Source: Kiritimatiellia bacterium (lineage in GTDB: Bacteria > Verrucomicrobiota > Kiritimatiellia > CAIQIC01 > Lenti-01). Taken from it: a DNA stretch of 64,000 nucleotides. Positions 38,468 to 43,617 of the stretch are shown one piece after another. A program made the position numbers and the translations under genes. The stretch lies in the NCBI GenBank assembly GCA_040768005.1, contig JAXGNL010000009.1, positions 1,471 through 65,470 on the forward strand, read 5' to 3'. Positions within the stretch are counted from its first letter, which is position 1, and each line of letters begins with the position of its first letter. A model generated the notes under the pieces. It searched no databases and was not told where the DNA came from. It saw nothing but the letters and a program-made list of their open reading frames with translations.

Positions 38468-40126
<1,659 letters not shown>

Positions 40127-40130
<4 letters not shown>

Positions 40131-41533
40131 TCCGAATGCCAAACCGCCTGTCCATTCCGCTGTGTCGCCTGCTGCTGGGCCTGTGCGCGGCCGGGGTGCT
40201 TCCGGCCCGGGCCCAGGCCCCGGCGCTGCGCTCCGGGCGGTCGGGGCGGGCCTCCATGTACAGCGCGGATCGCCGCTTCATGGTGTCCGGGCTCAGCTCC
40301 TCGGAGAACATGGTATTGGCCGGCCGGCTGGCCGACCTGGCCGCCCAGGTGGAGAAAACCACCGGCATGCCCCTGCCGATGGAGCGCGGCCAGGTGCTGG
40401 GCGTCATGGTCCAGAGCTCTTCCTCGCCGGACGCCGGCATCCTGAAGATGCAGGGATGGGACGGCGGGGGCTTCTACCAGCGCCTGGTCGTGCCCGGCCG
40501 CTACCGGCTCGACGGCGAAGACCTGCTGGAAGCGGCCGGCTGGCTGCTGCTGAACCGCTATGCCGCCGGCTACACCCCGTCCGCCGGTCGGAGCGGCATC
40601 GGCGCAACGATACCGGAATGGATGTCGGCCGGGCTCGTGCAGAACACCCAGGCCGCCCTGCACTCCCGCAACCGCGACTGGATCGTCCGGGAACTGGCCG
40701 ACGGCCGCCACATGACCCTGTCCGCCATTGTCCGGCTGGAAAGCCTGCCCCCCGGCCGCTGGCGGGAAAAAGCCTATGCCGCCGCCGCCATGGAATTTCT
40801 CTTTCCGGACGGCGATTTGAATGCCTGGGCCGCTCTTTTCAAGGCCGTCGGCACGCGCCGGGCGATCGATGCCGCCTGGCTGCGGGAACACAGCGCCGCG
40901 CTGGCCGGGCCGCAGCATCCCGAGACCGTCTGGCGCGAGCATCTGGCGGAGCGCGCGCGCGCCCGCACGATCGCGGCCTGGAGCGATCGCGGCCTGCAGC
41001 TGGAGGAAAACCTGCTGCGCACGCTGAACATCCGTCCCCGGACCCTGGTGGCCGGCGTGCCCGACGACGTGCCCGAGGAACTGTTTGCCAAAGACCTGAT
41101 GGACTACCGCGGGCAGGAATGGACCGGCCCCCTGGCCGCCGCGCTGTCGCTTCAGGTGCAGAGCCTGAGGCTGGGCGCGCCGCCCCTGCTGCAGGACGTG
41201 CTCGCTTCCTACGCCGCCTACTTCGATCAGCTGACCCGGCCTCCGGAGGCCAAAACCCCGTGGTGGCGCCGCCGCCGCCGCACTCCCGAAGACCTGCGGC
41301 CGCCCGATGACGCCACCTGGCAGGTGGCCCTCAATCAGCTCTGGCTGCGGGCCGAACACGCCCATCAGCGATTCCTCGAGCGTCACCAGACCCGCAAGCG
41401 CTACGTGGACGCCTTCGACCGGCCCGAACCCGGCCGCCTCGAGGAAACCGTCCCCGCCGCCGATCTGCCCCGCACCCGCTGGCAGCGCTACGTCGATGAG
41501 GTCGAGCAACGGCTGAACCAAGCGGGGTACTGA
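40127..41533 (+). CDS. secreted hypothetical protein
   Basis: 468 aa. Signal peptide [17 protein letters not shown]. No recognisable family. Confidence 0.55.
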
Positions 41534-41545
41534 AAAAGCCGGTTG

Positions 41546-41996
41546 TGTCCACAGATGTCACAGATGGACACAGAGTAGAGAAGGAGGACCAGATGAAGAA
41601 AGAAGACCCGGATCCGCAGACCTATGCCATTATCGGTGCGGCCATGGAGGTTCACCGTGACTTGGGGCATGGTTTTCTTGAAGCCGTTTAGCAGGAGGCC
41701 CTGGCGATTGAGTTTGGCTTGCGGGGGATCCCTTTTGAACGGGAGAAGGAAATCGAGGTGGTGTTCAAAGGGGTCATATTGAAAACCGGGTATCGGGCGG
41801 ATTTTCTATGCTATGGGGAGATTCCCGTTGAGACCAAGGCGATCCAGGCGCTGACCGGCAACGACGAAGCCCAGATCATCAACTATCTGAAGGGAACCAA
41901 AACACACCGCGGGCTGTTGTTAAATTTCGGGGCACCACGCCTGGAGTACTTGCGACGGGTCTTTTAATCTGTGCCCATCTGTGACATCTGTGGACA
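41546..41996. mobile_element. 451-bp unit: GxxExxY gene bounded by 28-bp inverted repeats
   Basis: Left TGTCCACAGATGTCACAGATGGACACAG (41546-41573). The right arm (41969-41996), reverse-complemented, is TGTCCACAGATGTCACAGATGGGCACAG, 27/28 identical. Confidence 0.6.
41593..41967 (+). pseudogene. GxxExxY family (PD-(D/E)XK-like) protein with in-frame TAG
   Basis: AAGGAGG then ATG 41593: MKKEDPDPQTYAIIGAAMEVHRDLGHGFLEAV-TAG-QEALAIEFGLRGIPFEREKEIEVVFKG...RADFLCYGEIPVETKA...AQIINYLKGTKTHRGLLLNFG. The TAG (41689-41691) replaces the signature Tyr. Confidence 0.8.
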
Positions 41997-42020
41997 GAGT
42001 CGGCTCCGGTTGTGGACGGC

Positions 42021-42371
42021 CTACTTCTCCTTGATCATCACCAGCGCCATTTTAAAGGCCTGGACGGCGTGAAGGGCGTGGGGGAGGTTGGCGGGCATGA
42101 TGACCATCTCGCCGGCCTTGGCCCGCACCGTTTTGCCGTCAATGGTGATCCGCACCGCGCCGTCGAGAATCCAGACCATGGCGTCATAGGGGGCCGAATG
42201 CGTGCTCAGGCCCTGTCCCTTGTCGAAGGCAAACAGGGTGACCGTGCCGGCTTTTTTGCCGATGACCGTTCGGCTGACGACGGCGCCCGGCGCCACCTCC
42301 ACCAGGCCGGCCATCGCAATCGCCCGGGACATCAGGCTCTCGGTTGTCTTCGCTTTGCTGCGGTTCGTCAT
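42021..42371 (-). CDS. cupin domain protein
   Basis: ATG 42371: MTNRSKAKTTESLMS...GTVTLFAFDKGQGLSTHSAPYDAMVWILDGAVRITIDGK...AGEMVIMPANLPHAL. Confidence 0.75.
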   Translation of the reverse strand: MTNRSKAKTTESLMSRAIAMAGLVEVAPGAVVSRTVIGKKAGTVTLFAFDKGQGLSTHSAPYDAMVWILDGAVRITIDGKTVRAKAGEMVIMPANLPHALHAVQAFKMALVMIKEK

Positions 42372-42492
42372 GGGGTGCTCCTGATCTGGCAATGGAATAC
42401 CACTATACGGCGGAGGGACGGATTTGCAAACGGGGGGCAGGGAAAACGTCCGGGCTTCGCCTGGCCGCCCGGGTGTGATAGGGTCGCCCCCC

Positions 42493-43617
42493 ATGAGCAC
42501 ACCTTTTGAGATGATCGGCACCGTGGAAGAGCTGCACCGCGCGGTGGAGCGGATGCGCGGGGAAAGCGCCGTTGCGCTGGATACCGAGTTTGTGTGGGAG
42601 AAGACCTACTACGCGCAGCTGGGGCTGGTCCAGGCCGCGCTGGCCGACGGCACCTGCTTCCTGTTCGATGCCGTGGCGCTGCCGGACCTCGCGCCGCTGG
42701 GCGAAATCCTGGGCGACCGCCGGATCGTCAAGCTGCTGCACGATGCCCCCCAGGATCTGATGATCCTGCGCCGGGCCACGGGCGCTGTCGCCCAGACCAT
42801 CTTCGATACCCGCCTGGCGGCCGGCTTTGCCGGCCTGGCGTCCACGCTGTCCCTCGGCCGTCTGCTGGAAGAAGTGATGGGCATCCAGCTGGCCAAGGCC
42901 CATACCCGGGCGGACTGGCGGGCGCGTCCCCTGGCGCCGGAAGTGCTCGACTACGCGGCCGACGATGTTGTCCACCTGCCGGAGCTGGCTGCGCGCCTCC
43001 GCGAACGCGCGCGCGCGTCCGGCATCGAAGCCTGGCTCGACGAAGAGCTGGCGTCGCTGGATGCGCCGGACGTGACGGAAGACAAGTCCCCCCTGGAGGC
43101 CTGGCGCCGCATCCGGGTGATGCCGCCGCCGCCGCCGCGCGTCCTGGCCGTGCTGCGCGAACTGGCCGCCTGGCGGGAAGAGCAGGCGCGCCGGGCCGAT
43201 CTGCCCCGCCGATGGCTGATGGAAGACCGGGTCCTGGCGGATACGGCCCTGCAAATGCCCCGGTCGAAGGAGGACCTGGCCCGGGTTCCCGGGCTGTCGG
43301 CCAAGACCCTCCAGCGTCGCGGCGACGACCTGCTGGCGGCCGTGGCGCGAGGCCTGGAATGCCCGGAAGAAGACCTGCCCGAGCCGGAACCCGCTGCCCG
43401 GCGCGATGCCCCGTTTCGTCAGGCGCTGGACTCCGCCCTGAAAGCCATTCAAACCCATGCCGCCGGCATGGGGCTGGATCCGGCCCTGGTCTGCAGCCGG
43501 CGCGACCTGGCCGCCTGTTTGCAGGCGGAGGAGGCAGAGACATCCCTTCACCCCTTGCGTCGCGGCTGGCGGGCGGAATTTCTCCGACGGGCTTCCATCC
43601 CGTTGTCCCCGCCATAA
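42493..43617 (+). CDS. rnd: ribonuclease D
   Basis: ALDTEFVWEKTYYAQLGLVQ..., KLLHDAPQDL, YAADDVVHL (DEDDy exonuclease motifs) plus an HRDC-like region. Confidence 0.85.
   Translation: MSTPFEMIGTVEELHRAVERMRGESAVALDTEFVWEKTYYAQLGLVQAALADGTCFLFDAVALPDLAPLGEILGDRRIVKLLHDAPQDLMILRRATGAVAQTIFDTRLAAGFAGLASTLSLGRLLEEVMGIQLAKAHTRADWRARPLAPEVLDYAADDVVHLPELAARLRERARASGIEAWLDEELASLDAPDVTEDKSPLEAWRRIRVMPPPPPRVLAVLRELAAWREEQARRADLPRRWLMEDRVLADTALQMPRSKEDLARVPGLSAKTLQRRGDDLLAAVARGLECPEEDLPEPEPAARRDAPFRQALDSALKAIQTHAAGMGLDPALVCSRRDLAACLQAEEAETSLHPLRRGWRAEFLRRASIPLSPP

Follow-up and report, generated by a model that had tools for sequence, protein, structure and literature searches.

We describe a cassette of 470 bases (41537-42005) from the genome of an uncultured Kiritimatiellia bacterium. 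A single small gene for a nuclease is enclosed in it by two arrays of a 7-base motif, mirror images of each other. With moderate confidence, we consider the cassette to be one copy of a horizontally exchanged, homing-like module that consists of a GxxExxY nuclease and its cognate repeat, and this particular copy to be a decaying relic of it. The window, that is, the whole stretch of 64,000 nucleotides that was analysed, corresponds to C9:1471-65470 of the genome bin G000 (2.58 Mb, 86% complete), and positions refer to the window unless a contig is named.

Organization of the cassette

The cassette is located between two protein-coding genes and not inside a 23S rRNA helix. The upstream neighbour on the forward strand (40127..41533, stop codon TGA at 41531-41533) is a conserved 468-aa open reading frame, for which homologues were found in 38 of 41 related genomes and a Pfam scan of the protein gave no match. 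The downstream neighbour is a cupin-domain gene on the reverse strand (42021..42521), convergent with the cassette and terminating in TAG (CTA at 42021-42023 of the forward strand). The convergent arrangement of the two neighbours had been pointed out in the original prediction and is confirmed. The nuclease gene itself (41593..41967, forward strand) has 375 nt and 124 codons, is inactivated by a nonsense codon and ends in TAA at 41965-41967; its reading frame begins 60 nt past the stop of the 468-aa gene and ends 53 nt ahead of the stop of the cupin gene. A ribosome-binding site, GAAGGAGG, is present on the same strand at 41580..41587, 5 nt 5' of the ATG. Across the cassette the GC content drops from about 70% to about 54%.

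The 28-nt inverted repeat described earlier around the gene is present. Its core, TGTCCACAGATGTCACAGATGGACACAG, lies at 41546-41573 in the left arm (41537..41577) and, as the reverse complement, at 41969-41996 in the right arm (41965..42005); the two match at 27 of 28 positions, the mismatch being in the right arm at 41974, and a 28-nt inverted repeat of this quality was matched in none of 100 shuffles. A repeat search lengthened the arms to 41 nt each, with 88% identity, their outer ends being AGCCG (41537-41541) and CGGCT (42001-42005). Each arm contains three units spaced 9-10 nt apart, namely CACAGAT at 41550-41556 and 41559-41565 and CACAGAG at 41569-41575 on the left, and ATCTGTG at 41967-41973, 41977-41983 and 41986-41992 on the right, where the first unit overlaps the TAA stop. 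The arms are close to the gene, as had been stated, but the distances need small corrections: the left arm ends 19 nt, not 20 nt, before the ATG, and the right core arm, directly 3' of the gene, is separated from the stop by 1 nt and not by 2. The claim that each arm is itself a hairpin is weak: the left arm has a modest one (8 bp, -6.8 kcal/mol, z -2.5), the self-hairpin is lost from the right arm of this genome, and inspection by eye found none apparent in the arms of the other unit families.

A promoter scan of the cassette found no sigma-70-like promoter inside it, and a terminator scan gave two terminator-like matches, both within the open reading frame and at chance level. An Rfam scan of 41000-42600 found no rRNA and returned one sub-threshold chance match to a miRNA.

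The encoded nuclease

With the TAG read as Tyr, the protein matched the Pfam family PDDEXK_3 (3.9e-37) and TIGR04256 GxxExxY (3.5e-40), the scores being 137 bits for the TIGR04256 profile (cut-off 35) and 127.6 bits for PF13366 (cut-off 22). PF13366 (PDDEXK_3) is the sole Pfam domain in the protein. These matches bear out the earlier assignment of the gene as GxxExxY and PD-(D/E)XK-like. The family is large, with more than 8,000 matches to PF13366/TIGR04256 in one search, and the invariant columns of its alignment include G27, E30, Y33, D70, E80, K82 and Q94. The AlphaFold2 model (pLDDT 91.4) has the topology H-H-E-E-E-H-E-E, and Foldseek placed it nearest to Cas4 SSO0001, lambda exonuclease, RecE, LHK-Exo, MGME1 and the AdnAB nuclease domains; the best structural matches, 4ic1, 3slp and 3h4r, had a TM of about 0.5 on the query. 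The protein as modeled has the alpha-beta-beta-beta-alpha-beta core and the D...(D/E)xK motif that define the PD-(D/E)XK superfamily. A sequence search of the PDB found no meaningful relative, and searches with PADLOC and PHROGs, which cover defence and phage families, gave no match.

The TAG codon

Codon 33 of the gene is TAG (41689..41691, forward strand), in place of the invariant Tyr33, the Y of G-F-L-E-A-V-Y. The intact G-x-x-E-x-x-Y signature and the full reading frame are absent from this copy and intact in sister alleles, codon 33 being TAT in three sister lineages (assemblies G001, L150 and L151 (ENA), and L154 (JGI)). Among these, G001 carries the cassette at the corresponding position, with a perfect 28/28 repeat and a flank protein that is 95% identical. 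The stop is upstream of the catalytic residues D70 and E80-x-K82, which do not vary in the family, and the product is null. The replacement of the signature Tyr codon, which the original prediction had noticed, is found again in a second, non-identical assembly of the same species: L153, a separate ENA assembly with 99.56% identity to the window across 9.9 kb (35 mismatches), also carries TAG at codon 33, together with the private change at 41661.

If the TAG were a sequencing or assembly error, or were read through or recoded, the allele would not be null. Error might be suspected from the two private changes in this cassette, at 41661 and 41691, which are 31 nt apart, and from at least one private 1-nt insertion elsewhere in this assembly, in an ABC-F gene at about 39635. 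We regard either possibility as very improbable. L153 has both changes and yet differs at 35 other positions over the 9.9 kb, so that the allele is real and typical of this species. Recoding is not indicated, since the adjacent cupin gene terminates in TAG and the six other GxxExxY paralogues in the genome have no internal stops; at this codon, relatives have TAT. Judged from these alleles, the TAG is a genuine and recent TAT>TAG nonsense mutation that yields a null allele, and the copy is a pseudogene member of its family.

A few further observations concern the integrity of genes and contigs in this set. The ABC-F (EttA-like) ATPase gene (38468-40130) is split by the private 1-nt insertion, which lies within 39630-39640 and gives GACGATGTCC here versus GACG-TGTCC in L153 and L154; the split is either an assembly error or a true frameshift in this bin. 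The orthologue of the G000 C3 cassette in G003 (C176:27836-28188, L068) is a pseudogene too, with a TAG and a frame break, so that in-place decay of these genes recurs. In L150 and L151, both low-coverage ENA contigs, five clustered C>T differences occur at the contig end, in the first 62 nt (window 41539-41590), and the rest of the cassette has none; such clustering looks like cytosine-deamination damage or an artefact of contig ends, not real variation.

Paralogues and unit arrays in the genome

The genome carries seven GxxExxY genes, each bracketed by inverted arrays of its own, different unit: CACAGAGG, ACAGGAT, ACGCAA, ACGGAT, CATGAGTT, CGCAGAGG/CGCCAAGG and, for the present cassette, CACAGAT. 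Arrays of at least three phased 6-mers number 163 genome-wide versus 5 in a shuffle, with only seven genes to go with them, and most are solo arrays or short gene-less hairpins. Most unit families comprise 10-48 arrays, chiefly gene-less. The sister families CACAGAG, CAGGAT and ACGGAT have 37, 38 and 45 arrays, respectively, and CACAGAT has just the two arms of this cassette, no other CACAGAT array having been found in the genome. With its nuclease dead and no other such array present, this copy would be a decaying relic.

The 28-mer had been expected to recur as the end of a mobile element. A search that allowed up to 3 mismatches found it nowhere else in the window or in the 2.58-Mb assembly, which is formally the outcome that the original prediction had itself named as refuting; both the 28-mer and the CACAGAT array occur at this locus only, with no sign that this copy has ever moved within the genome. 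The search for other GxxExxY genes that had been proposed alongside showed the design to recur in the seven genes, with arms of other units.

Several of the arrays have structures of their own. In the GxxExxY cassette on C24 (G000 C24:18787-19400, L007), the left arm together with the 5' leader is tandemly triplicated, as three copies of the 60-nt unit AGAAGATGAATCAGAACTCATGAACTCATGAAGAGAGACAACAATGGGCAATGAGTATCC. The C2 GxxExxY gene (G000 C2:27900-28960, L009) lies within at least seven alternating ACGGAT and ATCCGT arms, found on both sides, which form several short hairpins. In G004 only, a gene-less element of about 175 nt (L060 255-429) interrupts the second ATCTGTG unit of the right arm at the position equivalent to window 41983/41984, with the junction CATCTGT[ACTAC...GCGCTGT]GAC. 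It contains an array of CAGGAA units as well as the right arm (CATGAGTT) of the cassette on C24, and full-length copies are present in G000 at C5:37880-38041, C13:21976-22148 and C23:13371-13520. These three copies sit within unit arrays as well, two in CTCTGTG-type arms and one in an ATTCGT-type arm. An element of this type always ends in CTGT, and in G004 it has inserted cleanly into a unit array.

Repeat units and protein subfamilies

We compared the surroundings of 80 homologues with at least 53% amino acid identity, from Verrucomicrobiota, Planctomycetota, Chloroflexota, Acidobacteriota, Proteobacteria and other phyla. Of these 80 loci, 63 contain the motif C[AG]CAGAT at least twice in the flanks, taken as 130 nt to each side of the gene, and of 31 same-genus paralogues with less than 53% identity none does; the background frequency is 0.18 motifs per 260 nt. 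Among the proteins of the genus and family, those that share a unit family are 60% identical versus 40% for those with different units (0 of 2000 permutations), a contrast that is somewhat inflated by orthologues at shared sites. The inverted-repeat score was above the 95th percentile of a composition control at 58 of 111 loci. Arm-to-arm identity is 96.8% in the unit cores and 71.7% in the spacers, and the arm mismatches, read on the sense strand, comprise 40 G.U versus 31 A.C, a difference that is not significant.

Across the loci compared, the unit sequence (CACAGAT here) is shown to be specific to the protein subfamily and to travel with it from phylum to phylum. The data also point to a constraint that acts on the units and not on a perfect RNA or DNA stem. 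Since the unit tracks the protein, the cores are conserved and no G.U excess is seen, the units point to recognition sites of the encoded protein, and we infer that they are binding or cleavage sites of the nuclease.

Occupancy of the site among relatives

Both flanking genes are kept adjacent in 12 genomes of the family, this one included. The site has a cassette in three of them (this genome, G001 and, in inverted orientation, G024), a gene-less hairpin of CGAAA-type units in one (G021) and no cassette in the remaining eight. Empty sites in relatives, which the original prediction had suggested looking for, are therefore common, and more of them were seen among further contigs. Where the cassette is missing, the flanking genes mostly overlap or are a few tens of bases apart; in G005, from the same genus, an unrelated spacer of 133 nt takes its place. 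No clean empty allele was found in a close relative, the nearest empty sites being in genomes with a flank protein at most 70% identical. With most of the relatives compared as the reference, the cassette is shown to be inserted between the two convergent genes.

The gene in G024 is 65% identical to ours, has the opposite orientation, so that it points the same way as the cupin gene, and is framed by CGCAGAT arms; the cassette lies nested between remnants similar to the end of our left arm, to our ribosome-binding site and to our right arm. We considered an inversion between the arms for G024, which is indistinguishable from re-insertion, the polarity of the units relative to the gene being equal either way. 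The further contigs also yielded one same-orientation cassette, in the distant relative L155. That cassette aligns collinearly with ours, and its divergence is about equal to that of its flanks (71% over the entire region); an old origin and vertical descent with many losses would fit this evidence as well. At the empty sites of L152/L162, L158 and L159, from several genera, a short GC-rich palindrome, for example CCCGCGGACCGCGGG, is found between the convergent stops. Such a palindrome may represent the ancestral target of cassette insertion, a terminator-like hairpin.

Comparison of G000 and G001 at other sites revealed swapping. At the C24 site the flanks are 94.5% identical and the cassettes differ, with a gene identity of 65% and with CATGAGTT arms in one species and CAGGAA arms in the other. 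The two sequences cease to be similar precisely at the stop codon of the upstream gene and become so again about 10 nt before the start of the downstream gene. Four sites have a cassette in G001 and something else in G000, namely a solo arm, an unrelated array and, at two sites, a gene-less hairpin with units that match a different G000 cassette. At other shared sites the cassettes are equal to or more diverged than their flanks. That cassettes are replaced at fixed sites, with occupancy varying among relatives, is shown by these alignments.

Age and probable exchange of the cassette

Nucleotide identity to G001 is 98.5% for the cassette and 93.2-94.5% for the flanking genes. The corresponding pS is 0.023 for the cassette versus 0.15 and 0.14 for the flanking genes (Fisher p = 4e-4 for the synonymous differences). 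Among five assemblies the cassette has 0-4 differences in 277 nt and the flanks are up to 12-16% diverged. All the genomes in this study are metagenome bins, and the contig of G004, which starts inside the gene, is possibly chimeric. The right-hand edge of the low-divergence tract differs from pair to pair. Position 41575 varies between G and T inside each of the two sister lineages, which suggests exchange or recurrent change.

Among these related lineages the cassette is shown to be several-fold younger than its flanks, in that it coalesces more recently, and it looks as if it was recently exchanged between them; alternatively, the population could be a mosaic in which tracts of ordinary recombination happened to cover the cassette and so lowered its divergence. 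As most relatives lack the cassette and its divergence is below that of the flanks, it behaves like a unit that can be separated and exchanged. The original prediction of a discrete mobile cassette stands to that extent, but neither a target-site duplication nor a second 28-mer accompanies it.

Discussion

We propose a mechanism in which a multimer of the nuclease would assemble on the phased units of both arms, these units being about one DNA helical turn apart. Cleavage at or between the arrays would then be followed by host recombination that copies or replaces cassettes. The module would spread from allele to allele in a homing-like manner, by nuclease-stimulated homologous recombination and not by cut-and-paste transposition, and resident cassettes would be replaceable. 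Transcription of the cassette probably comes about by read-through from the gene upstream, because no promoter was found within it, the gene is co-oriented with the upstream gene, and the cassette of G024 is co-oriented with the cupin gene. The stem of about 38 bp that the two arms could form in RNA may be used; apparently it is not what is selected.

A much broader version of this proposal can be formulated, which we offer tentatively and think doubtful as a whole. The cassettes would be minimal selfish elements found throughout the prokaryotes, in which a Cas4-like nuclease of about 125 aa reads phased 7-nt units and is encoded inside its own palindromic target. They would spread from allele to allele, and into gene-less hairpins or terminator palindromes, by nuclease-triggered recombination that leaves no target duplication; cassettes would be swapped, and dead or departed arrays would make up much of the short dispersed repeat content.

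Other explanations do not require a moving gene. The nuclease and its repeats might serve the host as a pair of the Ssn/NTS type, the nuclease being sequence specific, possibly for single strands, and acting on the dispersed arrays as its targets, with an effect on transformation or recombination; the arms that flank the gene would then be simply the nearest targets or autoregulatory sites. The excess of phased arrays over the shuffle (163 versus 5, for seven genes, most arrays being gene-less) fits such a pair, and so does the Cas4-like fold. Cas4 reads short motifs in single-stranded overhangs. Ssn genes are, moreover, themselves flanked by repeats that the nuclease cuts (PMC11893778). We nevertheless find this explanation unlikely, since copies of the CACAGAT family are not dispersed in this genome, gene and arms co-occur across phyla, and the presence or absence of cassettes, the replacement of one by another at fixed sites and the youth of this one point to movement of the gene. 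Selection might, alternatively, be on RNA. The arm-arm stem of about 38 bp in a read-through transcript would be cut by RNase III, which would free and stabilise the nuclease mRNA and insulate the host transcript. A predicted fold that closes the cassette by this stem (-191 kcal/mol, z -4.4), the lack of an internal promoter and the GxxExxY members reported in rRNA intervening sequences (TIGR04256 description) are all in keeping with this, yet the spacers are 72% complementary versus 97% for the unit cores, there is no sense-strand excess of G.U (40, versus 31 A.C), a plain stem needs no unit that follows the protein subfamily across phyla, and many arrays are solo arms. An RNA device of this sort therefore seems improbable to us.

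A classical transposon with terminal inverted repeats, or a MITE-like derivative of one, is the explanation for which we see least reason, and it is largely refuted by the sequence comparisons. Terminal inverted repeats are indeed present, and the 9-nt direct repeat CCGGTTGTG occurs at 41539-47 and 42006-14. However, PDDEXK_3 is the only domain and is not of a transposase type, the genome has no second copy, and 44 armed cassettes gave no signal of target-site duplication, their flanking direct repeats having a mean length of 2.52 nt versus 2.60 nt in shuffled pairs. We rejected CCGGTTGTG as a target-site duplication, its left copy lying within the extended, outer inverted repeat and the 44 cassettes giving no such signal; it is best considered incidental.

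With a horizontally exchanged module of nuclease and cognate repeat as the preferred reading, the question arises of where it stands among known systems. Our best reading is that it is closest to REP/RAYT, to Ssn/NTS or to the free-standing homing nucleases, and the locus fails a defining feature of each, the catalytic fold being the wrong one for RAYT and Ssn, and the intron or intein of homing enzymes being absent and cleavage putative. REP/RAYT systems (REPtrons) likewise have one small gene flanked by inverted copies of a short repeat, and several families of gene and repeat per genome, each with its own repeat and with gene-less copies that far outnumber the genes. However, RAYT is an HUH/Y1 (IS200-like) transposase and the protein studied here a hydrolytic PD-(D/E)XK nuclease (PF13366 being its only Pfam match), REPs are individual hairpins and the arms here three phased 7-nt units, and CACAGAT, unlike its sister families CACAGAG, CAGGAT and ACGGAT, is not dispersed in this genome. 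Ssn is a site-specific ssDNA nuclease with NTS/SRM repeats flanking its gene, and its homologues have different repeat variants with matching specificities (PMC11893778). Common to Ssn and the cassette is a small single-domain nuclease gene with the cognate repeat on both sides. The fold, by contrast, is GIY-YIG in Ssn (cd10448) and PD-(D/E)XK here, NTS is a single hairpin-forming repeat and not an array of phased units, and activity, putative for the cassette nuclease, has been shown for Ssn.

Free-standing homing endonuclease genes, including that of the PD-(D/E)XK enzyme I-Ssp6803I, resemble the cassette in the placement of the gene between mirror half-sites, in presence or absence at a fixed locus, in a gene that is younger than its surroundings and bordered by short tracts of low divergence, and in having no target-site duplication. 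They differ in that the cassette has neither intron nor intein and that its target would be a palindromic unit array or terminator-like palindrome and not a conserved coding sequence; cleavage of the empty allele by the cassette nuclease is putative only. The Cas4/RecB/lambda-exonuclease clade provides the best structural matches and has the same D...ExK core and Q-x-x-x-Y helix, but the cassette nuclease is about half the size and lacks the Fe-S cluster module, and no CRISPR or recombination partners are near the cassette. Our literature search found no paper with this architecture, and GxxExxY, PDDEXK_3 and PF13366 were mentioned just in passing; the class of modules that combine repeat and nuclease in this way is widespread and apparently undescribed.

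PF13366/TIGR04256 is a very large family with no assigned function in the literature searched and almost no papers devoted to it. The present copy is in itself ordinary, a freshly dead member of its class. What the locus and its relatives provide is a concrete hypothesis open to laboratory tests, namely that each subfamily would recognise its own 7-nt unit at helical phase, CACAGAT in this case, and gene and arms would be exchanged as one unit. If true, this would name the substrate of the GxxExxY family and account for a considerable part of the short intergenic repeats found in Kiritimatiellia and in other phyla. It would also possibly provide, as in the case of Ssn, small nucleases or DNA binders with programmable-looking specificity.
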